A stretch of 64,000 nt of DNA from Pseudomonadota bacterium (GCA_039804665.1 JBDLVU010000001.1:11648-75647), one strand, 5' to 3'. Positions 1,751 to 60,362 are shown, counted from the stretch's first letter. The notes: a model not told the origin generated them from the letters alone. Made by a program: numbers and translations.

Positions 1751-1780
1751 TGCGAAATTTAACGTAGAACATTCTACGCA
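1751..1780. promoter_or_regulatory. 30-bp palindromic operator (master-regulon site)
   Basis: TGCG-AAATTTAACGTAGAACATTCTA-CGCA upstream of the ADH/3alpha-HSD/Coq4-like operon. Confidence 0.7.
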
Positions 1781-1854
1781 AATACGTCAAAAGCACCTGC
1801 CCCGGCTCGTTCCTGAACCGGACGATCATTCGGGGGACAAGGGAGAGGACGCGC

Positions 1855-2880
1855 ATGCGCGCAGCCGTATTTCACGAAGCGGGCCAGCCGCTAACGATCG
1901 AAACCGTGCCCGATCCGCTTCCCGCCGCAGGCGAAGTGGTGATCGCGGTTCATGGCGCGGGCATCTGCGGTTCGGACCTCCACATCACCCAGCACGCCGG
2001 GATCATCCGTCCGGGTACGGTCCTTGGGCACGAATTCGCCGGCACGATCGCGGCGCTGGGCACCAGCGTCGGCGGATCGTGGAAGGTGGGCGACCGCGTG
2101 ACCGCCTTGCCGCTGTTTCCCTGCTGCCGCTGCGACGCCTGCGATGCGGCGATGCCCAACCTGTGTGCGCACGGCAACTGGGCCGGGGTCACCCCTGAAC
2201 GCCCCGGCGCCTATGCCCAATACGTCGTCGCGCGCGCCGCCTTGCTGCAAGGGGTGCCTGCCGGCGTCCCCGAGGCCGAGGCCGCGATGATCGAGCCGCT
2301 GGCCGTCGGCCACCACACCGTCGGTCGTGCCGGCATCCACCCAGGCGAAGCGATGCTGATCCTGGGCGGCGGGCCGATCGGGGCGGCCGCCGCGCTATTT
2401 GCCCGCGCTGCCGGCGCGCGCCATGTGGTGGTGAGCGAACCGGCCGCGCCCCGGCGCGAACGCTGCCACCAGCTGGGCGCCACCGCCACCATCGACCCGG
2501 CCGCCGGGGATGTCGCCGCGCGCTTTGCCGCGCTGGCGGGCAAGCGGCCGGACGTGGTCTTCGAATGCGTCGGCCTGCCCGGCCTGCTGCATCAGGCGGT
2601 CGAGCTTGCCGGCCTGCGCGGCCGCGTGGTGGTGGCGGGCGTGCTGTTCGAGGAAGACCGTCTCCCCCCGCTGGTCGCCTTCGCCAAGGAAGTGACCATT
2701 GCCTATAGCCAGGCCTATACCGAACGCGATTTCGCCGCGGTGATCGATGCCCTCGCCCGGCGCGAGATCGACGCCGCGCCGATGCACACGCGCACCGTCG
2801 GGCTGGACGACCTTCCCGCCGCGTTCGAGGCGCTGCGTGGCAACCCGCACGAATGCAAGGTGCTGATCGATCCGCGCTGA
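1855..2880 (+). CDS. Zinc-dependent alcohol dehydrogenase (MDR family)
   Basis: GICGSD, GHEFAG, structural Zn CxxCxxCx7C, GGGPIG. Confidence 0.9.
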   Translation: MRAAVFHEAGQPLTIETVPDPLPAAGEVVIAVHGAGICGSDLHITQHAGIIRPGTVLGHEFAGTIAALGTSVGGSWKVGDRVTALPLFPCCRCDACDAAMPNLCAHGNWAGVTPERPGAYAQYVVARAALLQGVPAGVPEAEAAMIEPLAVGHHTVGRAGIHPGEAMLILGGGPIGAAAALFARAAGARHVVVSEPAAPRRERCHQLGATATIDPAAGDVAARFAALAGKRPDVVFECVGLPGLLHQAVELAGLRGRVVVAGVLFEEDRLPPLVAFAKEVTIAYSQAYTERDFAAVIDALARREIDAAPMHTRTVGLDDLPAAFEALRGNPHECKVLIDPR

Positions 2881-2913
2881 TCCGGCACCGCCCCGATTCA
2901 TCCAGAAGGAACC

Positions 2914-3678
2914 ATGACCATGTCCCGTACCATCGTCATCACAGGCGCCGCTTCCGGCATCGGCAAGGCCACCGCCGACATCTGCCGCGCGGCCGGCGAC
3001 ACCGTGATCGGCGTCGACCTTTCCGGCACCGACATTTCCGCCGACCTGTCCACGCCCGCAGGCCGCGCGACGATGGTGGCCGAAGTCGGGCGGATCGCGC
3101 CGGGCGGCATCGATTCGCTGCTGGCCGGCGCCGGCATCTCGCGCCCCGATCCGATCTCGGTCGCGGTCAATTATTTCGGCGCCATCGCCACGCTCGAAGG
3201 CCTGCGCCCGCTGCTGGCCCGGTCGGCCACGCCGCGCGCGGTAGCGATCTGTTCCACCGCCGCGATCCTGCAGGGCAACAACGCCGTGGTCGAAGCCTGC
3301 CTTGCCGGTGACGAAGCCGCCGCGCTCGCCGCCTGCGCCGCCGCTCCGATGAGCGCCTATCTCGATTCCAAAAAGGCGTTGACCCTGTGGCTGCGCGCCG
3401 CCGCGGTAAAGCCCGAATGGGCGGGCGCGAGCATCTCGCTCAACGGCATCGGCCCGGGCGTGGTGCTCAGCCCGATGACCGCGCCGCTGTTCGACGATCC
3501 GGCCATGGTCGCCGCGATCCAGCGCAGCAATCCCATCGTGACCGAGGGCTATGCCCAGCCCGCCGAAATCGCCGAGGTGATCCGCTTCCTGCTGACGGTG
3601 CAGACGCCCTACCTGCTGGGACAGGTGCTGTTCGTCGATGGCGGGTCGGACGCGCTGCTGCGGCCCACCCAGTTCTGA
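2914..3678 (+). CDS. hsdA: 3alpha-hydroxysteroid dehydrogenase-like SDR
   Basis: TGAASGIG, ADLST..GR, VNYFGA, YxxSK and C-terminal DGG.DA..RPTQF resemble Comamonas 3alpha-HSD/CR. Confidence 0.75.
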   Translation: MTMSRTIVITGAASGIGKATADICRAAGDTVIGVDLSGTDISADLSTPAGRATMVAEVGRIAPGGIDSLLAGAGISRPDPISVAVNYFGAIATLEGLRPLLARSATPRAVAICSTAAILQGNNAVVEACLAGDEAAALAACAAAPMSAYLDSKKALTLWLRAAAVKPEWAGASISLNGIGPGVVLSPMTAPLFDDPAMVAAIQRSNPIVTEGYAQPAEIAEVIRFLLTVQTPYLLGQVLFVDGGSDALLRPTQF

Positions 3679-3704
3679 CACACCGGCTCTGAAAGGAACG
3701 CCCC

Positions 3705-4508
3705 ATGCAAGTCGGCAGCACCCTGCGCAGTTCCTCGCGCTGGCTCAACGATCCGCGCATCCGCGAATGGATGTCCACCGAAAGCCTGCGGCGCAACCGG
3801 CCCGATTATGGCCTGATCGAGGGGCTGCCGGTGCTGGTGCCCGCCATCGACGAAGTGCGTGACCGCGACCGGGCCGAACGCCTGATCCAGCAGGAGCGCC
3901 GCGACAACAAGGCGCTCGATCGCTGGTTCGAGGAACGCTTCGTTTCCACCTACACGCTCGAGGATCTTGGCCGGAATCCGGCCGGATCTCTCGGCCGGTT
4001 GCTCCACGATCACATGATCGCGCAGGACCTCAGCCTCGAACTGTTGACCCAGCGCCAGATGGACCCGACATGGGCGCCGGAGTCCGACCTTGACTACTTC
4101 ACGCTGCGCACCGGGCAGACCCACGATTTCGACCACCTGATAGGCGAATGCGGCTTTGACGTGATGGGCGAGATTTTCCCCACCGGCCTGCGCACCGGCA
4201 ACATGTTCGCGCACGTCTCGCCCGAACTGGCGGGTGAACTGCTGACCACCAACACGTTCATCACGTACCCGTGGATGATGCGGATCATGCTGCACTATCC
4301 GCAAGCCTGGCCAACGTTCTGGGCCAATTTCAGCCACGGCCACGATGTGGGGCAGCAATCGGCATGCCTGTTCACGGTGAAGTGGGAGGATTACCTCCAC
4401 CTCACCCCGGCCGAAGCGCGCGAAGCGCTGGGCGTTCGCGGATTTCGCGGCGCGGCAGACAACACCGCCGCCAGCCGCATCTTTGGCGAAGGCCGCCTGA
4501 TCATCTGA
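3705..4508 (+). CDS. Coq4-like metalloprotein (paralog 1)
   Basis: PAGSLG, THDFDH-x11-E, KWEDYLHL..AEAREALG. Confidence 0.75.
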   Translation: MQVGSTLRSSSRWLNDPRIREWMSTESLRRNRPDYGLIEGLPVLVPAIDEVRDRDRAERLIQQERRDNKALDRWFEERFVSTYTLEDLGRNPAGSLGRLLHDHMIAQDLSLELLTQRQMDPTWAPESDLDYFTLRTGQTHDFDHLIGECGFDVMGEIFPTGLRTGNMFAHVSPELAGELLTTNTFITYPWMMRIMLHYPQAWPTFWANFSHGHDVGQQSACLFTVKWEDYLHLTPAEAREALGVRGFRGAADNTAASRIFGEGRLII

Positions 4509-4524
4509 ACCGGCGCGGGCGCGG

Positions 4525-5091: not shown

Positions 5092-5104
5092 GGCAAATCC
5101 TCTA

Positions 5105-5134
5105 TGCGCAAAATGTATCGCCATTCATTACGCA
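5105..5134. promoter_or_regulatory. 30-bp palindromic operator in a divergent promoter; TTGACA follows at 5140-5145
   Basis: TGCG-CAAAATGTATCGCCATTCATTA-CGCA. Confidence 0.7.
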
Positions 5135-5204
5135 TGGAATTGACATTATCCAAGTTTGGCGTTCAATTGCGTCGAAATAAAACACAACGATCTGGAGAGT
5201 CTCC

Positions 5205-7341: not shown

Positions 7342-7355
7342 AGGATGCAGACCCC

Positions 7356-8255: not shown

Positions 8256-8264
8256 AGTTGAGAA

Positions 8265-9435: not shown

Positions 9436-9465
9436 TGCGAAAAATCTTCGTTTTACGGATACGCG
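9436..9465. promoter_or_regulatory. 30-bp operator, one mismatch
   Basis: TGCG-AAAAATCTTCGTTTTACGGATA-CGCG upstream of the membrane protein gene. Confidence 0.5.
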
Positions 9466-10602: not shown

Positions 10603-11280
10603 TCATGCGCGAAGCGAGTGTCCCTTGCCAAGTGATTCGGACAATGCGCTTCCCCCGATAAATATTTCTACGCATCGGCATGCGTGGGCCGACACTTCCT
10701 GCGGCGTTGGCAACGGTAGGCCCACCAGCATGGCATTGTGCAGCGGCGACAGCGCCATCGCCACGAACAGCAGCGTGCGCTCCACCGAACCGTCCTGTTC
10801 CAGCGCATGGCGCCGCAGGAATTCGGCCAGCGGGGCGATCATGTAGTCGAAATGCCCGCGCCGGATCGCTTCGCCCATTTCGGGGAAATCCCGCGCCTCA
10901 CCCAGTGACAGCAACCCCATGCCATAGCTGTCCGCGCGCGAAAGCTCGTTGTGCAGGTCGATCACATAGCGTTCGAGCGCGGCGCGCAGGTTCCCGCCCG
11001 CATCGGGCTGCAAGGGCGGAAACCGCTCTGCCCCCGCGATCACACAGGCGCGGAACAGCGCCTGCTTGTCACGGTGCCAGGCATAAAGCGTGCGCTTGGT
11101 CACCCCGGCGGCGGCGGCCACTTCGTCCATGGTCGTCGCGCGGTAGCCCTGCCGCACGAAGATGCCGCGCGCCACATCGAGCAGATGCGCCATGCGCCGC
11201 CGGGTGGTTTCGGCCGAGGGACGCCCGCGCCGCCCGCTTTCGGGCACCCGGCCCGCATCCTCGTTGTCCTGCGCTTCCAT
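10603..11280 (-). CDS. TetR/AcrR family transcriptional regulator
   Basis: F...GY.ATTMDEVAAAAGVTKRTLY HTH; GGAGG RBS. Confidence 0.9.
   Translation of the reverse strand: MEAQDNEDAGRVPESGRRGRPSAETTRRRMAHLLDVARGIFVRQGYRATTMDEVAAAAGVTKRTLYAWHRDKQALFRACVIAGAERFPPLQPDAGGNLRAALERYVIDLHNELSRADSYGMGLLSLGEARDFPEMGEAIRRGHFDYMIAPLAEFLRRHALEQDGSVERTLLFVAMALSPLHNAMLVGLPLPTPQEVSAHACRCVEIFIGGSALSESLGKGHSLRA
10645..10674. promoter_or_regulatory. 30-bp operator inside the tetR 3' coding region, upstream of the esterase
   Basis: TGCG-CTTCCCCCGATAAATATTTCTA-CGCA. Confidence 0.5.
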
Positions 11281-11397: not shown

Positions 11398-12438
11398 ATG
11401 CCACCCACATCAATGCCGCTGGCCCGCGTCCATGGCCCGGGCGACGTACGGCTGGACACCGTTCCCATCCCCGCGTGCGGCGCGGGCGAGGTTCTGCTGC
11501 GCGTGGGCGCCTGCGGCGTGTGCGGCAGCGACCTTGGCTATATTGCGCAAGGCGGGCTGGGCGGCGTGGAGCCGCTGAAGCAGCCCCTGCCCATCGGCCA
11601 CGAATTTGCCGGAACCGTGGTGGCAGTGGGCGCAGGCGTTACCGGCATCGCGCCGGGCCTGCGCGCCGCGGTCAACCCGGATCGCGCCTTCATCGGCGGC
11701 GGTGGCCCAGACGGCGCGATGGCGCCCTATATCCGGATCGAAGGCGCAGAGCTGGGCGAGACGCTGTTTCCCCTGCCCGACAGCCTGTCCTTTGCCGAAG
11801 CCGCGCTGGCAGAACCGCTGTCGGTTGCGCTGCACGGCCTGCGCGTGGTGCGGGTGCGCGCGGCAGACAAGGTGGCCATCCTTGGCGCGGGACCGATCGG
11901 GCTGTGCACGCTGGTCATGCTGCACCATCTGGGCGTGCGTGACGTGGCCATTTTCGACCGCGTGGACGAACGGCTGGACCGCGCCCGCACGCTGGGGGCC
12001 GGCCTTGCGGTGAACGTGACGCGCGAATCCCTTCCCGATGCGCTCGCGCGGTTTCACGGCAGCGGCGAACGCTTTGGCGCGCCGTTCGTGGGCACCGATG
12101 TGTTCGTCGATTGCGCGGGCTCTGCCGCCGCGCTGCAAGAGGCGTTGGCGGTGGCGCGCTATCGCGCCCGCGTGGCGGTGATCGCGCTGCATCACACGCC
12201 GCTGGCGCTCGACCTGTGGCGCCTGATGGCCAACGAGATCACGATCTCGGGATCGGTCGCGGATGCGCGCTCGGAGGAATTCGGCGAAGCGGTGGCGATG
12301 CTTGGGCAAGGACGGCAGGACCTCTCCCCGCTGATCAGCCACCGCATCGATTTCGACCAGTTTCACGAAGCCCTTGCCACGGCAGCCGACGCAGCGCGCG
12401 CGGCCAAGGTGGTTCTGACATTCGCGGAGGCCGCATGA
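11398..12438 (+). CDS. Zinc-binding dehydrogenase (MDR), lacking the structural-zinc loop
   Basis: GVCGSD, GHEFAG, GAGPIG; no Cys4 loop. Confidence 0.85.
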   Translation: MPPTSMPLARVHGPGDVRLDTVPIPACGAGEVLLRVGACGVCGSDLGYIAQGGLGGVEPLKQPLPIGHEFAGTVVAVGAGVTGIAPGLRAAVNPDRAFIGGGGPDGAMAPYIRIEGAELGETLFPLPDSLSFAEAALAEPLSVALHGLRVVRVRAADKVAILGAGPIGLCTLVMLHHLGVRDVAIFDRVDERLDRARTLGAGLAVNVTRESLPDALARFHGSGERFGAPFVGTDVFVDCAGSAAALQEALAVARYRARVAVIALHHTPLALDLWRLMANEITISGSVADARSEEFGEAVAMLGQGRQDLSPLISHRIDFDQFHEALATAADAARAAKVVLTFAEAA

Positions 12439-13712
12439 CCAAATCGCCCCCCGTCATCCGCATCGACGACATGGCCGATCCGGTGCTGACCCCGGCGCTG
12501 GTCGCGGCGCGGCAAGGCCCGGCGGACCTGCCAGATTTCCTGACGCCCGATCAGGTGCTGGAGCACGCGATGGCGCAAACCGGGCTTTCGGACTTCGGCC
12601 CGGAGACCGGCTTTCGCCAGCGGCTGGCCGTGACCCTGCGCGCGCTTTACGAGGATGAAGGGCTGACGCGCGGCGGGCGGCTGAACATCATGGGACAGGC
12701 GATCCGCGTGATGGTCAACCGCCTGCGCATCGAGGATCTGCTCAAGCGCCATCCCGAAATCCTTGAAGTGCCCATCGATCGCCCGATCTTCATCGCCGGA
12801 CTGCCGCGTTCGGGCACCACGCATCTCGTCAACTGGCTGTCACGCGACGAACGGCTCAATTCGCTGACGCTGTGGGAATCCGAAGAACCGGTGCCCACGG
12901 TGCAGGTCGCGCCGGGCGAGACGGACCCGCGCATCCTGCGGTCGGCGGCGGTGTGGGAAGCGTTCGGCGCGATGCTGCCGCACATGGCGGCCATGCACGA
13001 AATGGCCGCCAACGACATCCACGAGGACAATGAGCTGATGTTCATGGACCTCAATTGCTACAACTGGGAATTCCAGGCCCGGTTGCCGCGCTGGATCGAC
13101 CATTACCTGTCGCACGACCGCACCGGATCATATGCCTACGAGAAAAAGGTGCTGCAGGTCATCGCGTGGCATCGCGGGGTAAAGCCGGGCGAGCCCGGGC
13201 GTCGGCGCTGGCTGCTGAAATCGCCGCAGCACATGGAAAACCTCTCCGCGATCAGGGCGGTGTTTCCCGATGCCACGATGGTCGTCACGCATCGCGATCC
13301 GGTGGACGTGCTGCGGTCGTTGACCACGATGCTGGGGTATTCGGACCGCATCCGGCGTGATCCGGTCGATCCCCCTGCACTGGCCCGGCTATGGGCCGAT
13401 CGCATCGAGCGGCTGCTGCGCGAATGCGTGGCCCAGCGCGAAAGCTGGGGGCCGGCGCAATCGCTGGACGTGCTGTTTCACGATTACATGGCAGACCAGC
13501 AAGGCATGGCGCGCCGCATCTATGCGCTGGCCGGGCTGGACCTGCCGCGCGAAACCGAGGCGCGGCTGATGGGCTATCTTTCCGAGAACCCGCGCCATGC
13601 CCACGGCAAGGTGATCTACGACCTTGAAGGCGTGTTCGGCATGAACCTGGCCGAGCTGCGCCAGCGCTTCGCATTTTATTACGACCGCTTTCCGGTCCGG
13701 CAGGAGAACTGA
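12435..13712 (+). CDS. Sulfotransferase family protein
   Basis: PIFIAGLPRSGTT (5'-PSB loop), LKSPQH, THRDP; ATGA overlap. Confidence 0.85.
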   Translation: MTKSPPVIRIDDMADPVLTPALVAARQGPADLPDFLTPDQVLEHAMAQTGLSDFGPETGFRQRLAVTLRALYEDEGLTRGGRLNIMGQAIRVMVNRLRIEDLLKRHPEILEVPIDRPIFIAGLPRSGTTHLVNWLSRDERLNSLTLWESEEPVPTVQVAPGETDPRILRSAAVWEAFGAMLPHMAAMHEMAANDIHEDNELMFMDLNCYNWEFQARLPRWIDHYLSHDRTGSYAYEKKVLQVIAWHRGVKPGEPGRRRWLLKSPQHMENLSAIRAVFPDATMVVTHRDPVDVLRSLTTMLGYSDRIRRDPVDPPALARLWADRIERLLRECVAQRESWGPAQSLDVLFHDYMADQQGMARRIYALAGLDLPRETEARLMGYLSENPRHAHGKVIYDLEGVFGMNLAELRQRFAFYYDRFPVRQEN

Positions 13713-13714
13713 TC

Positions 13715-16946: not shown

Positions 16947-17695
16947 TGGGACCGAAGCACGATTTCGCGGGCGCGCACGTGCTCGTTACCGGTGGCACCA
17001 GCGGCATCGGCGCGGCCTGCGCCGCGCTGTTCCGCGAAGCGGGCGCGCACGTGACGATCACCGGCACGCGTGGCGGTGCCATCGATTACGACACCGACCT
17101 TGCCGGCTATCGCTATCTGCGGCTGGATATCGAGGACAAGGCGAGCATCGACGATGTCGCCGCCGCGCTTCCGCGGCTGGATGTGCTGGTCAACAACGCC
17201 GGGATCGCGCTGCCTTCGCTGGGGCTGGACGAATGGGAGCCCGACGTGTTCGACCGCGCGGTGGCGATGCTGCTGAACGGGGCGTTCCGCATGGCCCGGC
17301 GCACGGTGGACCTGCTGGCGCAAAGCACGATGCCGGGGGGCGCATCCGTGATCGGCGTGGCATCGATGAGCAGTTTCTTCGGCATTCCGGTGGTGCCCGG
17401 ATATGGTGCGGCCAAGACCGGCCTTGTCGGCCTGACCCGCACGATGGCCGCGCATTGGGGACCGCGCGGCGTTCGCGCCAACGCGGTGGCAGCAGGATTG
17501 ACCCGCAGCGGCATGACCGCCGGCACCTTTGCCCAGGAAGCATGGACCGCGCCCACGCTCGCCCGCACGCCGCTGGGCCGGCTTGGCGAACCGGACGACA
17601 TCGCGCAGGCGATCGCCTTTCTCGCCAGCCCGGCGGCGGGCTGGATCACCGGGCAGACGCTGGCCGTGGATGGCGGATACACCATATCCGGATAA
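16943..17695 (+). CDS. SDR family oxidoreductase
   Basis: TGGTSGIG, NNAG, YGAAK, VDGGY. Confidence 0.9.
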   Translation: MMGPKHDFAGAHVLVTGGTSGIGAACAALFREAGAHVTITGTRGGAIDYDTDLAGYRYLRLDIEDKASIDDVAAALPRLDVLVNNAGIALPSLGLDEWEPDVFDRAVAMLLNGAFRMARRTVDLLAQSTMPGGASVIGVASMSSFFGIPVVPGYGAAKTGLVGLTRTMAAHWGPRGVRANAVAAGLTRSGMTAGTFAQEAWTAPTLARTPLGRLGEPDDIAQAIAFLASPAAGWITGQTLAVDGGYTISG

Positions 17696-17737
17696 ATTTT
17701 GCCCACAATTTACGCATTTGCACGTGCATTATATAAT
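17687..17737 (+). promoter_or_regulatory. 30-bp operator (17687-17716, one mismatch) overlapping a sigma70-like promoter
   Basis: TCCG-GATAAATTTTGCCCACAATTTA-CGCA; TTTACG (17709-14), 17-bp spacer, TATAAT (17732-37). Confidence 0.6.
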
Positions 17738-18971: not shown

Positions 18972-19001
18972 TGCGTGACCATTCATGACAAACACTTCGC
19001 A
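18972..19001. promoter_or_regulatory. 30-bp palindromic operator
   Basis: TGCG-TGACCATTCATGACAAACACTT-CGCA, 26 bp upstream of the amidohydrolase ATG. Confidence 0.7.
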
Positions 19002-19027
19002 AAATAAACAGATCGGGAGAATTGACC

Positions 19028-20824: not shown

Positions 20825-20865
20825 GCATTTGTGCCACGAGAAGCAGAATCAAGAGGATGTCGACC

Positions 20866-30713: not shown

Positions 30714-30821
30714 TTTCGTCCTGCTCCGGGATCCGGTGTGGCCAAGAAGGCCACAAACAGGAATCCCCTCTCCCAAATTTCAACGCAAGTTGCGGCCACA
30801 CTTGCCACAATGTCAACTCCA

Positions 30822-30851
30822 TGCGTAATATGAAGAGAAATATTTTACGAA
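30822..30851. promoter_or_regulatory. 30-bp operator (one mismatch) in the kstD/SDR divergent promoter; minus-strand TTGACA at 30811-30816
   Basis: TGCG-TAATATGAAGAGAAATATTTTA-CGAA. Confidence 0.65.
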
Positions 30852-35993: not shown

Positions 35994-36023
35994 TACGTAA
36001 TTTCTTACGTATCATACAGCGCA
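35994..36023. promoter_or_regulatory. 30-bp operator (one mismatch) in the SDR/OYE divergent promoter
   Basis: TACG-TAATTTCTTACGTATCATACAG-CGCA. Confidence 0.55.
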
Positions 36024-39508: not shown

Positions 39509-39524
39509 CACTGCTCTCCCGTCA

Positions 39525-40445: not shown

Positions 40446-40537
40446 GAGCATCCTCCTCTTCCGGCTTGCCGGATCGAGGCTGACTATGTCGATACCCGTA
40501 CCCGCGATAATTGACGGGAATCAAACGAACCAAATTT

Positions 40538-40567
40538 TGCGTAGATTAAGTGAAATTTTTCTTCGCA
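40538..40567. promoter_or_regulatory. 30-bp palindromic operator upstream of hsaC-hsaA-kshA
   Basis: TGCG-TAGATTAAGTGAAATTTTTCTT-CGCA. Confidence 0.7.
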
Positions 40568-42026: not shown

Positions 42027-42082
42027 ACAAAGATCAGCAGAATCAATTGCTGGTCCTCGACAATTCCCATGGGAGATGCCTG

Positions 42083-48458: not shown

Positions 48459-48515
48459 GCCTGCTCCCATCGATTCGACGCAACACGCCGTTGCGGCCTG
48501 CGTTACTACGCATTT

Positions 48516-48545
48516 TGCGAATTTCAATGATTACAATAATTCGCA
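48516..48545. promoter_or_regulatory. 30-bp palindromic operator
   Basis: TGCGAATT-N14-AATTCGCA with perfect 8-bp arms, upstream of the SDR-NTF2-NTF2-BVMO operon. Confidence 0.7.
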
Positions 48546-51025: not shown

Positions 51026-51087
51026 CACGCAGGCGCGCCTTGCACGGCGCGTTGCCTATGCCGGCCGTGACCGATAATCACGACGGC

Positions 51088-52212
51088 ATGGGCAACGCGA
51101 TCGATCCGGAAATTTCAGATCTCCTCGCCCGGCTTTATGCCGGGATCGATGGACCGCAGCCGTGGCAGGCGTTCCTCGAAGCGCTGGCGCGCTGGATGGA
51201 ATCGACCTACGCCACGCTGATCATCACGGCGCCCGGCCAAAGCCAGCCCGGCACTTTTGTCACCCCCGGCGCGGACCCGCAATTCCACGACGACTACATC
51301 ACCAGCTTTTTTGCGGATGATGCCTTCCGCGATCTGCCCGAGGGGCAGGTAACGTCGCTCGCGCAGTTCCTCTCCACCCGGCCCAACGCCCTGCTTCCCG
51401 GCTATCGTGAATACCTGAAGCTGTCGGGCGGCGAACAGGTGCTGGGCGTGGACTTGCGCTTCGGCGCAGGAAAGCGCGGCCAGTTCGAGGCCCGCTTCCG
51501 CCTCAGCCGCGACCAAAGCCTGCCCGATTTCACCGCGACCGACCGCACCCGGCTGCAAGCGCTTGTGCCGCACCTGCGCATAGCGGTGGGGCTGTTCGAA
51601 AAGTTGCAGTTCGCCGGCGCGCAGCACGGCGTGTTTCATTCCACCGCGCAAGGGCTGGGGCTGGCGCTGGTGGTGCTTGACCGCGCGCGGCGCATCGTCA
51701 GCACAAACGCACTGGCCGAACGCTTCCTCCACGAAGGCGAAGGCGTCCTGCGGCACGGCGACGAGATCGCCTTTACCGCCACCGCCAACCGCCGCATCGT
51801 GGACGAGCTGCTGAGCGCAAGCCCTGCCGCCCCTACTGGCGCGCTCGATACCGTAGCCTCCGTCACCCGGTTCCGCATCGAACGCCCGGTACACGGCGAT
51901 CTGGTCGCGACCGCACGCCCGCTCGATCTGCCGGCGATCCATTCGGGTACAGGCGCGCTGGCATTGTTCCTTGCCCGGCCTGCGGAAAAATCCGCGCCCG
52001 ATCCGCAAGTCCTGCGCGACGTGCTCGGCCTGACGATGGCCGAGGCGCGGCTTACCAGCGTGCTCAACCGAGGCCTGACGCTGGTCGAGGCCGCGCGGGA
52101 ACTGGGCATCGCGCACAACACCGCCAAGGTGCAGCTGCGCTCGGTCTTCGCGAAAACGGGCGTGCATCGTCAGGCCCAGCTTGTGGCCCTGCTTGCCACG
52201 CTTTCAGGCTGA
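51088..52212 (+). CDS. LuxR-type HTH regulator with N-terminal sensor domain
   Basis: LT.AEARL...L..G.TL.EAA.ELGI..NTAK.QLRSVFAKTGVHRQAQLV; paralog of 27867-28985. Confidence 0.85.
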   Translation: MGNAIDPEISDLLARLYAGIDGPQPWQAFLEALARWMESTYATLIITAPGQSQPGTFVTPGADPQFHDDYITSFFADDAFRDLPEGQVTSLAQFLSTRPNALLPGYREYLKLSGGEQVLGVDLRFGAGKRGQFEARFRLSRDQSLPDFTATDRTRLQALVPHLRIAVGLFEKLQFAGAQHGVFHSTAQGLGLALVVLDRARRIVSTNALAERFLHEGEGVLRHGDEIAFTATANRRIVDELLSASPAAPTGALDTVASVTRFRIERPVHGDLVATARPLDLPAIHSGTGALALFLARPAEKSAPDPQVLRDVLGLTMAEARLTSVLNRGLTLVEAARELGIAHNTAKVQLRSVFAKTGVHRQAQLVALLATLSG

Positions 52213-53848: not shown

Positions 53849-53868
53849 CATCACCCGGTGGGGTTATG
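53849..53868. promoter_or_regulatory. 20-bp lux-box-like palindrome
   Basis: CATCACCC-GGTG-GGGTTATG upstream of the BVMO-like gene; same pattern as 49773. Confidence 0.6.
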
Positions 53869-53872
53869 ACGG

Positions 53873-54652
53873 TTAGTTCAGCAAAGCCCCGCCATTCACA
53901 TGCAGCACTTGTCCGTTGATCCAGCGCCCGTCCTCGGACAGCAGCATCGCCACCATACCCGCGATATCCTCGGCCGTGCCCAGCCGGGTGCTGCGCGTTT
54001 CCGCAATGCAGTGGTCGATCCAGTCCGGCGGCACCTGCCCGCCCGCGATCATCTCGGGCGTCATCACAAAGCCGGGCGCCACGGCATTCGCGGTGATCCC
54101 CTGCTTGCCCCAGCGGCTGGCCACGTGCCGCATCAACGCGTTCAACCCGCTTTTCGACATCGCATAGCAGGGCCGCTCCGGCTCGCCCGAAGCACATGCG
54201 CCCGAACTCGTATAAACCAGCGCGCCCGCACCCGCCGCCAGCAGGTGCGGCAGCGCGGCGCGCGTACACAGCAGATGCCCGCGAAGGTTCACCGCAATCG
54301 TCCGGTCGAAAACCGCCATGTCCACCGAAAGCGCGTCGCTGTCGGCAAAGATCGTGCGCAGGTCGGCCGCGTTGACATGCACCCCGTCCAGCCGGCCCAG
54401 CCGCGCCACGGCCCCGTCAAAGGCCGCATTGACCGAAAGCTCGTCGGTGATGTCCACGCCCACGGCAAAGGCTTCGTGCCCGGCCGCCGTCATGCGCGCG
54501 GCCAGCGCTTCGCCCGCGGTCAGGTTGATATCCGCGATGCAGACCCGCGCCCCTTCGCCGCACAGCCGCTCCACGGTGGCCGCGCCGATGCCCGTTCCCG
54601 CACCAACCACCATGACGGCCTTGCCCGCCAGCCGCGTATCGTGAACACCCAT
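53873..54652 (-). CDS. SDR family oxidoreductase
   Basis: GAGTGIG, NAA, YAMSK, VNGG. Confidence 0.85.
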   Translation of the reverse strand: MGVHDTRLAGKAVMVVGAGTGIGAATVERLCGEGARVCIADINLTAGEALAARMTAAGHEAFAVGVDITDELSVNAAFDGAVARLGRLDGVHVNAADLRTIFADSDALSVDMAVFDRTIAVNLRGHLLCTRAALPHLLAAGAGALVYTSSGACASGEPERPCYAMSKSGLNALMRHVASRWGKQGITANAVAPGFVMTPEMIAGGQVPPDWIDHCIAETRSTRLGTAEDIAGMVAMLLSEDGRWINGQVLHVNGGALLN

Positions 54653-54721
54653 GCCCATCATCCCTCCCATGCGCCGCTCCTTTCCATACTGGAAAAGGGA
54701 CTTGGCTTATCGCCCTTGAAT

Positions 54722-54751
54722 ATCGTAGTATCTGCATCGACTAACTACGCA
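54722..54751. promoter_or_regulatory. Degenerate 30-bp operator
   Basis: ATCG-TAGTATCTGCATCGACTAACTA-CGCA (CGTAGT/ACTACG arms) in the SDR/OYE divergent region. Confidence 0.5.
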
Positions 54752-54984
54752 ATGACAAGGCTTAATGCCGGACGGAGAGGATAAATGCGGTTTTCAAGCC
54801 CCCTTTTGGCGACACCAAGGTGATTCCAGGCATCGCGGCGGCCCCGGCTTGCAAAGGCCATAACCGCCGCGCCGTGTACCGACTTTCCCGCCCGACACAC
54901 CGCCGTCCAACCCGGTCGCGAACCCGCTGAGCACCTTGCGGCCCATTACCGCCTGATCGGCGCGCCAACACAGGAATGATTTCC

Positions 54985-57120
54985 ATGTCCAACCGCTATC
55001 CCCACCTGCTCTCGCCCGGCCGCATCGGCACGATGACGCTGAAGAACCGCATCGCCGTCACCGCGATGGGCGTTAGCCTTTCAGAAGACGATGGCACCGT
55101 GGGCGAACAACTGATCGCCTACCACGAAGAGCAGGCGAAGGGCGGCGTCGCGCTGATCATTTCGGGCGTGGCGGGCGTGGCCTGGCCGGTCGGCGCCGTC
55201 GCCACGGGGCAGACCGCGATTTCGGACGACCGCTTCATCCCGGGCCTGAAGGCGATGACCGATCGCGTCCATGCGCATGGCTGCAAGATCGCCGTGCAAT
55301 TGCACCATGGCGGCTTTGTCGCCGGCTATTCCTCGGCACGCTGGGGCCACCCGTTGTGGGGCCCGGCCGTACCGCCGCCCTACAAAGGCGACTTCATGAA
55401 CTATTTCCTGCCCGAGGAGATGGGCGGCGTGGGCGGCGTGGCAGCTCCGCAACTGAAGATCCTTGAACAGGCGGACATCGACCTTGCCGTGCAGCAGTTC
55501 GGCGAAGGCGCCCGCCGTGCGAAGGAGGCCGGGTTCGACGGGATCGAGATCCACGGCGGCCACGGCTACCTGCTGTCTTCATTCACCTCACCGGTCACCA
55601 ACACCCGCACCGACGGCTATGGCGGCAGCCGCGAAAACCGCCTGCGGCTGACGCTGGAAGTGATCGCGGCCATCCGCAAGGCGGTCGGCCCCGATTATCC
55701 GGTGTGGATCAAGCTGGATTCGCGCGAAGTGGGCAAGCCAGGCGGCATCACCATCGAAGACGCCGTAGCCAATGCGAAGATGGTGGAGACCGCCGGCGTC
55801 GATGCCATCACCGTCACCGCCTATCACGATACCGGCAATGGCAAGCTCCATTCGGAATCGAACATCCCCCACATCGACAGCTTCAACCTTCCCGCCACGG
55901 CGGACATCCGCGCTGCGGTGTCCATTCCGGTGATCGGTTCAGGCCGTGTCGAAGTGGACGCGGGCGACCATGCAATCGGCAAGGGCGAGGTCGATTTCAT
56001 CGCCATGGGCCGCAAGCTGCTGGCCGATCCGGCGCTGCCGAACAAGCTGATGGCGGGCGAACCGGAAAAGGTCCGTCCTTGCATCTATTGCTACACCTGC
56101 GTCAGCGCCATCTACCTCGGCCAACCCTCGCGTTGCGCGGTCAACCCCGCGCTGAGCTTTGAATTCAAGGGCGAACCGCCCCACGCAGGCGCTGCGCCCA
56201 AGCACGTCGCGGTGATCGGTGGCGGCCCCGGCGGAATGGAATCCGCCCGCCGGCTTGCCGCGCTGGGACACAAGGTCACGCTCATCGAAAAGTCAGACCG
56301 TCTGGGTGGCACGCTGCGCTTTGCCAGCCTTGCCTATGAACCCAACGAACGACTGCTCAACTGGCTGCGGCGCGAAGTGAAGGAGGCGGGCGTCGATGTG
56401 CGCCTTTCCACGCCAGCCACGCCCGAACTGCTGCGCACGCTGAACGTGGACGAGGTGATCGTCGCCACGGGCGCGATCCGGGGCATGCCGCCCATCCCCG
56501 GCAACGATCAGGACCACGTGTTTTCGGGCGACGACATGCGCGGGATGATGCTGGGCGAAAGCTCGGGTGAACTGAAGCGCAAGACAGGCCTGTTCACCCG
56601 CCTCGCCACCAAGGTCGGCGCGGCCACCGGCGCCACCGCCAACCTCGCGCTGGTGCGCAAGGCAACGCACACCTGGATGCCGCTGGGCGATGACATCGCC
56701 ATCATCGGCGGCGAACTGGTTGGCGTCGAACTGGCCGAATTCCTCGCCGAACGCGGCCGCAAGGTTCACGTGATCGACGAAGCGCCGCGCCTCGGCAAGG
56801 GGCTGCTGCTGGTACGGCGCATGCGGCTGCTGTCGGAACTGGCCGAACACGGCGTGGGGCTGCACGCCGGAGTTTCGGACATCGTCATCGGCAAGGACGC
56901 GGTGACCTTCACCGATGCCACCGGGGCTGCCCGCTCGGTGCCCGCCAGCAATGTCATCGTCGCGCGCGGGGCCGAAGGCGATCTGTCGCTGGCGGAGGCG
57001 CTGACCGCGGCGGGCTTTACCGTCCACAGCGTCGGCGATGCCAACGGCGTCGGCTACATCGAAGGGGCGATGCGCGGCGCTTCGGACGCCGTGCGCAAGA
57101 TCACCATGCCTGCCGCCTGA
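54985..57120 (+). CDS. FMN/[4Fe-4S]/FAD oxidoreductase (2,4-dienoyl-CoA reductase / BaiCD-like OYE family)
   Basis: AGFDGIEIHGGHGYLL, CIYCYTC...C cluster, IGGGPGG. Confidence 0.85.
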   Translation: MSNRYPHLLSPGRIGTMTLKNRIAVTAMGVSLSEDDGTVGEQLIAYHEEQAKGGVALIISGVAGVAWPVGAVATGQTAISDDRFIPGLKAMTDRVHAHGCKIAVQLHHGGFVAGYSSARWGHPLWGPAVPPPYKGDFMNYFLPEEMGGVGGVAAPQLKILEQADIDLAVQQFGEGARRAKEAGFDGIEIHGGHGYLLSSFTSPVTNTRTDGYGGSRENRLRLTLEVIAAIRKAVGPDYPVWIKLDSREVGKPGGITIEDAVANAKMVETAGVDAITVTAYHDTGNGKLHSESNIPHIDSFNLPATADIRAAVSIPVIGSGRVEVDAGDHAIGKGEVDFIAMGRKLLADPALPNKLMAGEPEKVRPCIYCYTCVSAIYLGQPSRCAVNPALSFEFKGEPPHAGAAPKHVAVIGGGPGGMESARRLAALGHKVTLIEKSDRLGGTLRFASLAYEPNERLLNWLRREVKEAGVDVRLSTPATPELLRTLNVDEVIVATGAIRGMPPIPGNDQDHVFSGDDMRGMMLGESSGELKRKTGLFTRLATKVGAATGATANLALVRKATHTWMPLGDDIAIIGGELVGVELAEFLAERGRKVHVIDEAPRLGKGLLLVRRMRLLSELAEHGVGLHAGVSDIVIGKDAVTFTDATGAARSVPASNVIVARGAEGDLSLAEALTAAGFTVHSVGDANGVGYIEGAMRGASDAVRKITMPAA

Positions 57121-57426
57121 GGCGCCCCCCATCTTAGACGAAAGACCGCCGGCAATGGGCAGCGATACCATCAAGGATGACGTGGTTGATCCGGGCAAGG
57201 CCCGGCTGCCCATTCCCGACACGATCCGCAGGCAGCCGCGCCGGCACTGCGTGGCGTTCAAGGCAGGGCGCCCACGCGCCCGCTTCCGGGCTGGAAACCC
57301 GGAATCACGCTGGCCCGACGGTGCCATGGCAGCATGCTCTGAACGGCGGCTGCCCGCCATCGGCGGCGCAGAATGAGGTTGACGCCAGACCCCTCGATGC
57401 GCAAACCACCCCGGCATTCCAGATCC

Positions 57427-57912
57427 ATGCCAGCGAGTGATATGACGCAGTCGTTCAACTTCGACGCTACCGACGTGAATATCGTCGCGCAACTTCGGCT
57501 TAATGGCCGCGCCAACAACCAGCAAATTGCTGAAAAGCTTGGTCTTACCGCTACCACGGTATCCACCCGGATCAAACGGATGGAGGACGCGAACCAGTTG
57601 CGCGTTGTCGCCGTTTCGGACTTTGCGGCGCACGGCTTCAACTTCCTGCTGCGCGTTGCGGTCGAAGTGGATGGCCGTCCCGCGTCCGAAGTGGCGCAGG
57701 AACTGGCCGAATTGCCGCAGGTTTTCGCCGCGCATCTCGTCACCGGCCGATACGATATCGATATGCTGGTAGCGCTTCAGGACTTCGACGACCTTTCCAC
57801 GCTGCTGGACAAGCTCTCCACCGTGCGCGGCATCCGGTCGCTGACGCCCGCGATCGTCGTCGACATCATCAAGTACAAGTTCGACGTCGCCCCGATCGAA
57901 GGCAGGGACTGA
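57427..57912 (+). CDS. Lrp/AsnC family transcriptional regulator
   Basis: D..D..I...LR.NGR.....IAEKLGLT..TV..RIKRME, VTGRYD. Confidence 0.85.
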   Translation: MPASDMTQSFNFDATDVNIVAQLRLNGRANNQQIAEKLGLTATTVSTRIKRMEDANQLRVVAVSDFAAHGFNFLLRVAVEVDGRPASEVAQELAELPQVFAAHLVTGRYDIDMLVALQDFDDLSTLLDKLSTVRGIRSLTPAIVVDIIKYKFDVAPIEGRD

Positions 57913-57917
57913 TCACG

Positions 57918-58406
57918 ATGCCCACTCCCGTTCTCGACGCGCTGGACCACCAGCTCATCGACCTGCTCTCGCGCGATGCGCGCGTCTCCAACCGCAAGAT
58001 CGCGGCCGAACTGGGCGTTACCGAAGGTACCGTGCGCGGGCGCATCAAGCGACTGCAACAGGATGGCCTGATCGCCTTCACTGCGGTCACCGGGTTCGAC
58101 ATGGCGCGCAAGTCGCGGCTGGCATTCATCAACGTTCAGGCCGATGTCGACAAGGTGCGCGAGGTCGCCAACATCATCAGCGAGCTGCCGCAGATCAACG
58201 CGGTGCTGGTCACGATGGGCCAATTCAACATCACCGCGATGTGCCTGATCGAGGAACTCGACGCACTGGTGGAAATCGCCTCGGATCAGATCCTCAGCAT
58301 CACCGGAGTCCATCACGTCGAAACGTCGATCGCGGTCAAGACGATGAAGTACAACGCCCGCATGGCCAAGATCACCCCGCAAGAGGCGATCGACGAAGAG
58401 GACTGA
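57918..58406 (+). CDS. Lrp/AsnC family transcriptional regulator
   Basis: LD.LD..LI.LL.RDARVSNRKIAAELGVTEGTVRGRIKRL, GV..VETSI. Confidence 0.9.
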   Translation: MPTPVLDALDHQLIDLLSRDARVSNRKIAAELGVTEGTVRGRIKRLQQDGLIAFTAVTGFDMARKSRLAFINVQADVDKVREVANIISELPQINAVLVTMGQFNITAMCLIEELDALVEIASDQILSITGVHHVETSIAVKTMKYNARMAKITPQEAIDEED

Positions 58407-58483
58407 TCGTTTTTGCACGCACGCCGTGCAGAACGCAGAATCAAGCCGGATTCCAACCAAAAACCGTCACCCATGTTTGCATT

Positions 58484-58513
58484 TGCGTAATTTAATAGAT
58501 AAAATATAACGCA
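58484..58513. promoter_or_regulatory. 30-bp palindromic operator (most AT-rich copy)
   Basis: ATTTGCGT-AATTTAATAGATAAAATATA-ACGCAAAT, extended 8-bp arms. Confidence 0.75.
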
Positions 58514-58564
58514 AATTGCAATATGGTTCGGCAAGCGCCGAGCCGTGGGAGAGGATGGAATCCG

Positions 58565-59356
58565 ATGAAACTCCAGCTTGAAGGTCGTACCGCGCTCGTC
58601 ACCGGGGGCGGGCAGGGCGTCGGACAGGGCATCGCCCGCGCACTGGCCAAGGCCGGCGCAGACGTGGTCGTAGCCCAGCGCCGGATCGAGGAAGCCGAAC
58701 GCGAAGCCGCCCACCTGCGCGACACGTACGGCGTCCGCGCAATTGCACTTGGCGTCGACGTGACCGATGCCGCCGCCGTGGATGCAATGGTCGCCCGCAC
58801 CGTGGAGCAGGTTGGCCGGCTGGACATCCTCGTCAACAATGCCGGCGGCAGCTTTCCCAAGCGGCTGGAAAACCATACCGACGCCGACATGGCCGGGTCG
58901 TTCAACCTCAACTACTGGTCGGCGTTCCGCGCGATGCGCGCCGCCTTCCCGGTGATGAAGGCGCAAGGCTACGGCCGCATCATCAACCTCGGCTCGCTCA
59001 ACGGCGTCAACGCGCACATGTTCACCGCCGCATACAACGCAGGCAAGGAAGCGATCCGCGCGCTCACCCGCACGGCCGCGGTCGAATGGGGCGGGCACGG
59101 CATCACCTGCAACGTGATCTGCCCCTCGGCGCTGAGCCCGCAGGCCAAGGATTATTTCGACGCCAATCCCGAAATGGCCAGCGCCATCCTGGGCCAGGTT
59201 CCCGTCGGCCGTTTTGGCGATGCGACGCAGGACATAGGGCCGGTGGCGGTCTTCCTCGCCAGCGAAGGCAGTGCATACATGACCGGCAACACGCTTTACG
59301 TGGATGGCGGCGGGCACATCAACGGCGTCGCGTGGCGCCCCGACGTGGAGGACTGA
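58565..59356 (+). CDS. SDR, paralog of 30869 (hydroxysteroid dehydrogenase-like)
   Basis: TGGGQGVG, NNAG, YNAGKEAIRALTRTAAVEWG, DIGPVAVFL. Confidence 0.85.
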   Translation: MKLQLEGRTALVTGGGQGVGQGIARALAKAGADVVVAQRRIEEAEREAAHLRDTYGVRAIALGVDVTDAAAVDAMVARTVEQVGRLDILVNNAGGSFPKRLENHTDADMAGSFNLNYWSAFRAMRAAFPVMKAQGYGRIINLGSLNGVNAHMFTAAYNAGKEAIRALTRTAAVEWGGHGITCNVICPSALSPQAKDYFDANPEMASAILGQVPVGRFGDATQDIGPVAVFLASEGSAYMTGNTLYVDGGGHINGVAWRPDVED

Positions 59357-59361
59357 TCGCC

Positions 59362-60171
59362 ATGACCGCATTCCCGGAAAGACTGCGTGGCAAGCGCGCG
59401 GTGGTCACTGGCGGCGCCCAGGGCATCGGCGCGGCCATCGCCCGCCGCCTTGCCGCCGAAGGCGCGATCGTCGCCATTCTCGATCTCGATGCCGCGCGGG
59501 CGAGCGCGGTGCTCGATGCGCCGCACATCGGCGTGGCCTGCGACGTTACCAGCACCGCCTCGGTCGATGCCGCGTTCGCGCACGTGGCCGCCGCGCTGGG
59601 CGGGATCGATGTGCTCGTCAACAACGCCGGCATCGGCAGCGCGGCGGGCGATGGCATGGACAAGTACTATGCGGCGCAGGCGGCCCACGCCTCGGACCCT
59701 TCCGTGCCGGTGGACCAGACCCTGCATTGCGAAGATGCCGGATGGTCGCGCGTCCTCGACGTCACCCTCAACGGCGCCTTCCGGTGCAGCCGCGCCGCGG
59801 TGCGCCAGATGGCGGCGCAAGGGACCGGCGGGGCGATCGTCAACATCGGCTCCACCGCCGCCGTGGCGGGCAACGGCCCGGTTCCCTATTGCACCGCCAA
59901 GGCCGCTATCCTGGGCATGACCCGTGCCATGGCGGTCGAACTTGCGCCGCGCGGCATCCGGGTCAACGCGGTGAATCCCGGCGCGACCGAGACCCCGATC
60001 TATGCCCCCTTGCCGCAAGAGGTGAAGGACGCAGTGGCGGCAGACAGCCTGCTCAAGCGCCTTGCCAGCCCCGATGAAGTGGCGGGCGCGGTCGCCTTTC
60101 TCGCGGGCGAAGACGCCAGTTTCGCCACCGGCAGCACCGTCACCGTCAACGGCGGCGCCTACTTCACCTGA
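59362..60171 (+). CDS. SDR family oxidoreductase
   Basis: TGGAQGIG, NNAG, YCTAK. Confidence 0.9.
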   Translation: MTAFPERLRGKRAVVTGGAQGIGAAIARRLAAEGAIVAILDLDAARASAVLDAPHIGVACDVTSTASVDAAFAHVAAALGGIDVLVNNAGIGSAAGDGMDKYYAAQAAHASDPSVPVDQTLHCEDAGWSRVLDVTLNGAFRCSRAAVRQMAAQGTGGAIVNIGSTAAVAGNGPVPYCTAKAAILGMTRAMAVELAPRGIRVNAVNPGATETPIYAPLPQEVKDAVAADSLLKRLASPDEVAGAVAFLAGEDASFATGSTVTVNGGAYFT

Positions 60172-60207
60172 TCCGGCACGGCGCGCGCAACCTTGCCGCT
60201 CCCCCCC

Positions 60208-60238
60208 CCGCCGCCGCCCGCACCCCGGGCGGCGGCGG
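60208..60238 (+). terminator. Probable terminator hairpin
   Basis: CCGCCGCCGCCCG-N5-CGGGCGGCGGCGG followed by TCTGCTTT. Confidence 0.55.
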
Positions 60239-60332
60239 TCTGCTTTCCGCCCCCTGCACCCTCCGCAGAATGCAGATTTTATACGAGACATTAGGCCATT
60301 TGGCACCAAAAAATCTCTGATTTAAACACGAT

Positions 60333-60362
60333 TGCGTATTTGTAATTGACTAAATTTACGCA
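60333..60362. promoter_or_regulatory. 30-bp palindromic operator upstream of the TonB receptor gene
   Basis: TGCGTA-TTTGTAATTGACTAAATT-TACGCA. Confidence 0.75.

Follow-up and report, generated by a model that had tools for sequence, protein, structure and literature searches.

The 30-bp palindrome and its genomic setting

The window analyzed here is a stretch of 64,000 nucleotides (GCA_039804665.1, JBDLVU010000001.1:11648-75647; C1:11648-75647 in the contig numbering used below) from a bacterium of the phylum Pseudomonadota, which carries multiple copies of a 30-bp palindrome, TGCG-N22-CGCA, among genes of steroid catabolism. The source genome, hereafter G000, is a metagenome-assembled genome of 343 contigs and 3.67 Mb that is 83% complete, and a search of sequencing runs shows that its DNA turns up in freshwater and groundwater metagenomes. 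Pfam searches identified a kstD-like flavoprotein, KshA, HsaA-like and HsaC-like enzymes, two old yellow enzymes (OYEs) and two Baeyer-Villiger monooxygenases (BVMOs) (Table 1), as well as a P450, many short-chain dehydrogenase/reductase (SDR) and SnoaL genes, two TonB receptors and two amidohydrolases, each with a Coq4-like partner. These results agree with the genes named in an earlier, sequence-only reading of the window (kstD, hsaC/hsaA/kshA, SDRs, BVMO, two OYEs, amidohydrolase, TonB receptor). The analyses described below indicate that the palindrome is very probably a real, cluster-specific operator of a steroid/bile-salt catabolism regulon, and that it precedes the majority of such operons both in this freshwater sphingomonad and in many related genera.

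The sequence-only reading had listed thirteen copies, eight perfect ones and five with one or two arm mismatches (9436, 17687, 30822, 35994 and 54722), and a pattern scan located all of them as described. The perfect pattern occurs 12 times in the window: the eight listed copies (1751, 5105, 10645, 18972, 40538, 48516, 58484 and 60333) are AT-rich, while the remaining four (9623, 14101, 31814 and 47356) are GC-rich and lie within coding DNA. Taken by itself, the pattern shows only weak enrichment (12 versus 6.35 +/- 2.55 in dinucleotide shuffles, i.e. about 2-fold), and the chance rate of about 2 per 64 kb assumed earlier was therefore too low. This low enrichment, together with the random appearance of two of the perfect copies (18972 and 10645), might be taken to mean that there is no dedicated element at all, only the AT-rich composition of promoters and chance TGCG/CGCA words. 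We regard this explanation as extremely improbable, because the excess is confined to a single spacing, positions that were not used for selection are conserved, the sites recur with free centres at orthologous promoters of different genera, and a matrix built without G000 still singles out the cluster.

The spacing test was carried out on intergenic DNA, as defined by gene calls from a codon-usage model trained on G000, in which TGCG-Nk-CGCA was counted for k = 0-60. In the intergenic DNA of the window, k = 22 was seen 7 times and every other k only 0-2 times (mean 0.3; Poisson P ~3e-8), which bears out the intergenic excess claimed before. Genome-wide, 37 intergenic matches with k = 22 face a background of ~28, hence nearly all of the excess sits in the window. 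Among the positions that played no role in the choice of sites, A is found at position 6 in 22 of the 26 half-sites, and W is conserved at positions -1 and 0, the two bases before TGCG. The element thus exhibits dyad symmetry of fixed length above chance, as a transcription-factor operator should.

A degenerate probe (WTGCGNWNW-N14-WNWNCGCAW) matches the 3.67-Mb assembly 7 times, in all cases within the steroid cluster on contig C1. To avoid circularity, a matrix was also built from 79 sites, all of them from other genomes, and then scanned against G000. Its 16 top matches (score >= 19.4) fall on C1 (15) and on C16 (1), and those that were annotated stand before genes of steroid type. The genome-wide scan had been set in advance as a test that could refute the regulon, and it gives no sign of the motif in front of unrelated genes. 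Eleven of the thirteen listed sites score 20-43 with this matrix; the other two, 18972 (14.3) and 10645 (12.3), score among background matches on unrelated contigs. The credible sites are all intergenic, 3-225 bp from a start codon. Outside of the window, a tandem trio (C1:75852, 75914 and 76027) precedes an SDR / acyl-CoA-dehydrogenase operon that also contains a second pair of Lrp/AsnC genes, the site at C1:86550 precedes an acyl-CoA ligase / amidohydrolase operon, and the site at C16:26498 precedes an SDR / extradiol dioxygenase / CoA-transferase operon.

Table 1. Copies of the palindrome, with scores from the 79-site matrix, and selected genes of the window (positions counted from the first letter of the window)
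Feature	Position	Strand	Remarks
Predicted operator, strongest copy	58484..58513		score 42.9; 78 bp after Lrp2 stop, before SDR gene 58565
Predicted operator	60333..60362		score 37.2; before TonB-dependent receptor gene 60399
Predicted operator	40538..40567		score 35.4; before hsaC-hsaA-kshA-like operon (39525-40451 and downstream, minus)
Predicted operator	30822..30851		score 32.8; kstD-like (minus) / SDR (plus) divergent promoter region
Predicted operator	5105..5134		score 29.4; SnoaL (minus) / SDR (plus) divergent promoter region
Predicted operator	48516..48545		score 28.5; before SDR-SnoaL-SnoaL-BVMO operon (minus)
Predicted operator	35994..36023		score 25.5; one arm mismatch; SDR (minus) / OYE (plus) divergent region
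Predicted operator	54722..54751		score 24.3; two arm mismatches; between SDR gene (minus) and fused OYE gene 54976
Probable operator	1751..1780		score 33.4; before zinc alcohol dehydrogenase operon 1855
Probable operator	17687..17716		score 25.4; one mismatch; before pterin-4a-carbinolamine dehydratase gene 17795
Uncertain site	9436..9465		score 20.4; one mismatch; before gene for a 167-aa protein of no known family (minus)
Doubtful site	18972..19001		score 14.3; outer arms perfect; XRE-like / amidohydrolase intergenic region
Doubtful site	10645..10674		score 12.3; within 3' end of TetR gene 10603-11280
Lrp/AsnC regulator 1 (Lrp1)	57442..57912	+	156 aa; PF13404 2.5e-12, PF01037 9.7e-13
Lrp/AsnC regulator 2 (Lrp2)	57918..58406	+	162 aa; PF13404 3.7e-14, PF01037 6.2e-9
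Single-chain double TetR	40646-41920	-	424 aa; two TetR_N and one recognisable TetR_C_7
TetR (TetR1)	10603-11280
Weak XRE-like helix-turn-helix protein	18098-18823
AraC	32386-33252
Weak LuxR-like protein	27867-28985
Weak LuxR-like protein	51052-52212
kstD-like flavoprotein	29019-30713		Pfam
KshA	37215-38300		Pfam
HsaA-like	38315-39511		Pfam
HsaC-like	39525-40451		Pfam
OYE genes	36065 and 54976		Pfam
BVMO genes	44708 and 52304		Pfam

Conservation in the Sphingomonadaceae

Probing of 400 genomes of the family revealed clustered AT-rich matches in several other genera (G238 and G413; G206; G122, G295, G406 and G450; others), and the matrix identified 5-14 sites per 40-160 kb in the related regions that were retrieved. 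Sites are present at orthologous promoters of hsaC (8/8), of the SDR/kstD divergon (9/9) and of the TonB receptor (5/5), in front of 5 of the scorable SDR orthologs of the SDR-SnoaL-BVMO operon (score 31-35), and in 6 of 12 regions orthologous to the SDR/OYE divergon (35994). Such retention at orthologous promoters, amid drifting centres, is the behavior of a transcription-factor operator. A 22-kb contig of G032 (C297), chosen by the presence of a double TetR gene and not by the motif, contains four sites with scores of 17-28. Plasmid pNL2 of Novosphingobium aromaticivorans DSM 12444 (NC_009427.1, 215902-256372) carries four operator copies in 40 kb, with sites before a kstD-like gene, after an Lrp pair and before an operon with a second Lrp pair. 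As to its gene content, pNL2 bears both Lrp pairs (SARO_RS18945/18940 and SARO_RS20405/20400) and steroid-type genes.

Of the individual copies in the window, eight are strongly supported by these comparisons and scores (5105, 30822, 35994, 40538, 48516, 54722, 58484 and 60333). The copy at 54722 is conserved in G206, the closest relative (~90% protein identity), and in G399. The copies at 1751 and 17687 are probable operators, the former being absent upstream of the sole ortholog available (in G206), and the copy at 9436, which is not present in G206, is uncertain. The two low-scoring copies are likely chance matches: the site at 18972 is found in front of none of 11 amidohydrolase orthologs and is also absent in the aligned G206 region, and none of 7 orthologous esterase promoters carries the site at 10645. 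In all, about 11 of the thirteen copies once assigned to one regulon are credible.

Anatomy of the operator and its promoter register

The half-site refined on the 79 sites reads WWTGCGTAAWWT, with T1, C3, G4, T5 and A6 conserved at 85-99%, and the core proposed earlier as TGCGWA is better written TGCGTA. The full consensus consists of WWTGCGTAAWWT, about 10 free bases and then AWWTTACGCAWW. In other words, each operator comprises two arms of 10-12 bp with TGCGTA cores 24 bp apart, and between them ~10-12 bp that are unconstrained in sequence and fixed in length; neither 15-bp half is palindromic by itself. The alignment with G206 illustrates this at six operators (5105, 30822, 35994, 40538, 54722 and 58484), where the arms are kept and the central ~12 bp are replaced with the total length unchanged. 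At 40538 and 58484 the arms are even identical, with 12 central bp replaced in the former case and a changed centre in the latter. This pattern of kept arms and replaced centres is the classical footprint of what would be two separated recognition elements.

The register of the operator with respect to promoters was analyzed for 94 sites scoring >= 20, read in both orientations, with -35 and -10 elements assigned as consensus matches only. Exact TTGACA occurs 11 times at offset +35 and 6 times at offset +13, and once each at three other offsets. The hexamer at +13 lies within the operator, mostly at promoters of TonB receptors, while the one at +35 begins 5 bp after the operator, at promoters of kstD, SDR genes and the second Lrp pair. 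The two registers differ by 22 bp, which would place one arm at about -44 in both promoter classes. Outside of the operator, +63 is the sole offset at which TGCGT recurs (22 times). In the class with upstream operators, this third half-site (consensus TTGCGTtGAAAt) covers the predicted -10/+1 and is separated from the -35 hexamer by 21-22 nt. Full operators less than or equal to 300 bp apart form 13 pairs, of which 9 are spaced by 60-63 bp and one by 126 bp; the tandem phasing of 62-63 bp corresponds to six helical turns. No second motif is visible in the 33-bp gap between tandem operators. A fixed register with predicted promoter elements and a promoter-proximal placement, as found here, are typical of a transcription-factor operator, and the predicted position of the element resembles that of operators from which an oligomeric regulator occludes the promoter.

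The copies in the window conform to these classes. Near 5105, TTGACA is found at 5140-5145 and the third half-site, TTGCGT, at 5167-5172; near 30822, on the minus strand, TTGACA is found at 30811-30816 and the third half-site at ~30784-30788. The operator at 60333 belongs to the class with the hexamer inside, with TTGACT at its centre (60346-60351), and a further half-site is present 63 bp from the operator at 48516. A promoter-like match also overlaps the operator at 58484, in a consensus promoter scan of 54600-60500 that gave 2 matches versus 1.3 expected and is not significant alone.

Two side observations concern the same elements. The module operator-5 bp-TTGACA-21/22 nt-TTGCGTtGAAAt, represented in the window at 5140-5172 and 30784-30816, is common to non-homologous genes in several genera. 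The operator at 48516 is adjoined by a short extra palindrome, TGCGTAGTAACGCA (minus strand, 48498-48513), in which two arm cores are only 2 bp apart.

The Lrp/AsnC pair as the candidate reader

Conserved arms, a free centre and retention at orthologous promoters are the pattern expected of one dedicated regulator or oligomer, and the earlier proposal that a single regulator or oligomer coordinates the pathway is supported by these properties across genera. We propose that the operator is, more likely than not, bound by the products of the two adjacent Lrp/AsnC genes at 57442-58406. The lrp2 gene begins 5 bp after lrp1, and both proteins possess an N-terminal AsnC-type winged helix-turn-helix (HTH) and a C-terminal RAM (AsnC_trans_reg) domain, the composition characteristic of the Lrp/AsnC family.

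When all proteins of the window were searched against the related clusters, this pair emerged as the only regulator of the window present in every cluster picked by the motif or by the double TetR. The identities of Lrp1/Lrp2 amount to 90/90% in G206, 77/74 in G032, 71/64 in G295, 73/66 in G406 and 67/69 in G238, and Lrp1 is present in all 25 related clusters examined. Orthologs of Lrp2 (E <= 1e-55) occur in 29 of the 400 family genomes; these 29 contain 77 matches to the probe (2.66 per genome, 22 of the 29 with at least 2), compared to ~0.58 per genome in the other 371. Among 20 loci picked solely by homology to Lrp2 (+/-10 kb), 18 carry sites scoring >= 15, with 49 sites in 366 kb versus ~4 in the 3.5 Mb of G000 outside C1 and C16, and in 11 of the 20 a strong site follows within ~100 bp of the Lrp2 stop codon (at 236 bp in one of these). 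Elements are repeatedly found in the order lrp1-lrp2-[operator]-kshA-[operator]-TonB receptor, with an SDR gene replacing kshA in the window. In 26 genomes the HTH domains of both proteins hardly vary, and the helix TEGTVRGRIKRL of Lrp2 is unchanged. KshA-positive genomes without a close Lrp2 served as controls; as predicted, the hsaC-kshA operon (65 and 72% identity) of one of them, G263, is siteless.

A side observation on the pair comes from a freshwater metatranscriptome (X8), which contains contigs identical to 57668-57819 and 57996-58467, i.e. to the lrp genes; DNA carry-over is possible and the contigs are not evidence of expression. The longer contig stops 17 bp short of the operator at 58484, and such contigs cannot show transcript boundaries.

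Several observations weigh against the assignment of the operator to this pair. The related genomes are not independent, so the counts are descriptive and overstate the support. Diverged Lrp pairs (33-38% identity) with near-identical HTH domains are accompanied by sites in G273, G452 and G222, which hold them (at 35-38%) within their steroid clusters, while almost the same diverged pair in G130 and G263 comes with no sites, and the HTH domains of the site-bearing and the siteless pairs are nearly identical to each other. In G193 the pair is present and followed by a site, but the hsaC-kshA operon is siteless. Nearly every sphingomonad steroid cluster examined holds some adjacent Lrp pair, so co-occurrence is only partly separable from shared cluster membership; when a steroid cluster without any Lrp pair was sought as a control, only G263 and G193a came close. 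No operator is found directly upstream of lrp1, where the 322-bp gap is GC-rich.

The geometry of the operator also counts against the pair in part. The canonical Lrp/AsnC dimer recognizes a palindromic site of 13-15 bp with an AT-rich centre, whose arms are separated by roughly one turn of the helix, and its arrays are phased by ~30-32 bp. Compared with this picture, co-occurrence of regulator and sites across genomes is observed, albeit confounded, and several helically phased sites per promoter are found, with a period of 62-63 bp, twice the usual ~31 bp. A 13-15-bp single-dimer palindrome is not found, the arm cores being 24 bp apart, so that a non-canonical mode of binding would be needed, e.g. 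by HTH domains of neighboring dimers.

Finally, a second Lrp/AsnC pair (pair B; C1:79225-80261), ~40% identical to the first, ends the SDR / acyl-CoA-dehydrogenase operon that sits behind the three tandem operators. The Lrp2-type subunit of pair B shares the TEGTVRGR helix with Lrp2, and in this genome pair B might read the operator itself or share in reading it.

These points lend some weight to the alternative that the operator is real and is read by another regulator (encoded elsewhere, unrecognised, TeiR/LuxR-like, XRE, AraC or pair B alone), with the first Lrp pair a passenger that has a different target of its own. Apart from the confounded co-occurrence, the unusual geometry and the siteless lrp1 promoter region, it draws on the 83% completeness of the assembly, from which regulators could be missing, and on the control of steroid genes by TeiR-like proteins in Comamonas and Pseudomonas (PMC8399759). 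We nevertheless consider it unlikely, if still serious, since each of the remaining regulators of the window is absent from most motif-bearing clusters: the two LuxR-like proteins and TetR1 were found only in G206, AraC only in G206 and genus g97, and the XRE-like gene occurs only in company with the amidohydrolase. Pair B is present, besides G000, only in G206, in G032 and on pNL2. Moreover, the site after lrp2 is kept although the next gene varies (SDR, kshA, flavin reductase).

The double TetR protein was our first idea for the binder, with one pseudo-dimer on each non-palindromic 15-bp half of the operator, and was rejected on its distribution. There are known cases of two TetR dimers on one long palindrome, and a reading of this kind, by the fused protein or by paired dimers of a TetR as in QacR, would suit both the two TetR_N domains in one chain and the location of the gene, which adjoins the hsaC operator in G000, in G032 and in genus g97. 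As in QacR-type systems, the long (~28-30 bp) dyad-symmetric operator would need more than one dimer. The only protein that matches this scheme, however, fails to co-occur with the motif, and we judge the scheme very unlikely. A single ortholog (in G032) was found among 60 relatives, and the protein is absent from the retrieved motif-bearing regions of G206 (160 kb), G238, G295 and G406 and from most loci anchored on Lrp, where the motif is kept, including the hsaC operator of G206; nor is there a 30-bp site before its own gene. A search of related loci with the double TetR returned unrelated TetRs only. All in all, the double TetR is confined to G000, G032 and genus g97, and TetR1 to G206, while the motif persists without either. 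As an observation in its own right, the double TetR always adjoins hsaC, and its matches in genus g97 show 45-48% identity.

Proposed mechanism

Returning to the Lrp pair as the preferred candidate, we suggest that an oligomer of the two proteins encoded at 57442-58406 would bind the phased arms, wrap or bridge the promoter DNA and thereby repress transcription, until it is released by a pathway-derived ligand. More speculatively, the two arms may be read by HTH domains of neighboring dimers in an octamer, and at ~31.5 bp per dimer, operators spaced by 63 bp would occupy every second dimer interface. The operator at 54722 may also drive the downstream Lrp pair; the gene order OYE-Lrp-Lrp is retained in G206 and on pNL2, and co-transcription of the pair with the OYE gene behind this operator would provide negative feedback.

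If the pair is the binder, it probably acts mainly as a repressor. Repression is favored by the perfect -35 hexamers, by operators predicted to overlap or bracket the core promoter, and by the finding that Sphingobium sp. Chol11 has an inducible pathway (PMC8399759).

Alternatively, the Lrp-type oligomer might be an activator or a dual regulator that recruits RNA polymerase from an operator centred near -55. Lrp-family proteins often both activate and repress, and the 11 promoters with the operator immediately upstream of TTGACA show the position typical of a class I activator. On the other hand, hexamers of perfect consensus are unusual for activator-dependent promoters, the other promoter class has its -35 inside the operator, and promoters of the upstream type carry the extra half-site over the predicted -10/+1. 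We find activation distinctly unlikely.

Combining repression with the preferred reader, a possible, if tentative, full picture is that the tandem Lrp/AsnC paralogs would form a hetero-oligomeric 'repressosome' that reads TGCGTAA arms (24 bp apart and phased by 63 bp), wraps consensus promoters and serves as a master switch of steroid/bile-salt catabolism in the Sphingomonadaceae, being released by a steroid-derived ligand or a product of bile-salt conjugates. If true, steroid sensing would gain a protein family, and a geometry of DNA reading, with which it had not been connected before.

Relation to known regulatory systems

Lrp of E. coli at ilvIH and pap and BkdR of P. putida are Lrp/AsnC regulators with phased multi-site operators. 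The system described here resembles them in the small winged HTH-RAM proteins encoded in or beside catabolic genes (here the predicted targets) and in AT-rich sites, several of which are phased per promoter, suggestive of a wrapped nucleoprotein complex. It differs from them in the presence of two tandem paralogs, in a 30-bp palindrome with arms 24 bp apart instead of a 13-15-bp box, in the phasing of 62-63 bp instead of ~30-32 bp, and in the association with steroid catabolism instead of amino-acid metabolism.

The KstR/KstR2 regulons of actinobacterial cholesterol catabolism offer a parallel of another kind, as they too place one palindrome before many steroid operons (kstD, hsaC, kshA) in different genera. 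KstR logic relies on a repressor and an inducer that is an intermediate of the pathway (PMC8399759). KstR and KstR2 are, however, TetR-family repressors with a 14-bp box, TnnAACnnGTTnnA, and the sequence, the length, the candidate protein family and the phylum are all different here. The consensus of the 79 sites does not match this box and lacks the AAC..GTT core, in accord with the earlier remark that the motif is unlike the actinobacterial one, and homologs of KstR have been reported to be absent from bile-acid-degrading Proteobacteria (PMC8399759).

Closer in taxonomic terms is the operator of EdcR in the estrogen (edc) cluster of Caenibius tardaugens, a 23-bp TetR site, TnnCnnTACnAnTnGTAnnGnnA, that overlaps the -10 element (PMC8700777). 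Both cases involve a steroid-related cluster of sphingomonads and a palindrome that overlaps promoter elements (a prediction in our case) and is conserved in a related genus, and the repression by which EdcR acts is also what we propose here. The EdcR operator covers four promoters of one cluster, and its sequence, length and conserved positions differ from those of the 30-bp palindrome.

In Comamonas testosteroni, TeiR/TesR (LuxR-type) and HsdR (LysR-type) regulate steroid degradation (PMC8399759). These are activators of other families, and the LuxR-like genes of the window are not conserved together with the motif.

According to a 2021 review, little was known of how Proteobacteria regulate the degradation of bile acids and steroids (PMC8399759). 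A 2026 paper noted two contiguous Lrp/AsnC genes in the cluster of Sphingobium sp. Chol11, without a target or function (PMC12882949), and a preprint on the Chol11 proteome makes no mention of regulators. Literature searches with the words of the motif or for a link between AsnC and steroids, with most subscription journals outside their reach, returned no earlier description. Within the searchable literature, neither the operator and its regulon nor their connection with the Lrp pair appears to have been described.

Other features of the locus

The window contains four Coq4-like paralogs (3705-4508, 20857-21744, 24413-25231 and 42047-42931). Two of them directly adjoin the large amidohydrolases (19022-20770 and 42928-44664) and one adjoins an AtuA-family protein, a pairing of Coq4-like and AtuA proteins that is also annotated on pNL2. 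An operon of six genes (11413-17695) encodes a zinc alcohol dehydrogenase, a protein of the sulfotransferase fold, a DUF1214 protein, a TIM-barrel protein, a Gfo/Idh/MocA oxidoreductase and an SDR. The operon is transcribed divergently from the TetR gene 10603-11280, was found only in G206 among the relatives examined and is without a 30-bp operator of its own.

Significance

The analysis supplies a defined operator, a map of its predicted regulon and a candidate regulator, and makes the question of how steroid degradation is regulated in these bacteria directly testable. The map covers kstD, hsaC-hsaA-kshA, kshA, the TonB receptors, the SDR/BVMO/OYE operons, the acyl-CoA ligase operon and a second meta-cleavage operon. 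N. aromaticivorans DSM 12444 provides a named, tractable experimental system for both the operator and the candidate regulator; in Sphingobium sp. Chol11 the pair is NCHOL11_RS15865/15860. Together, these results would assist in annotating genes for steroid degradation in the genomes and metagenomes of sphingomonads and in building biosensors of steroids or bile salts, and the unusual geometry of the operator may point to a way of binding DNA that is new for oligomers of the Lrp family. The Lrp/AsnC pair is thus a testable candidate for the master switch of steroid catabolism in these bacteria.

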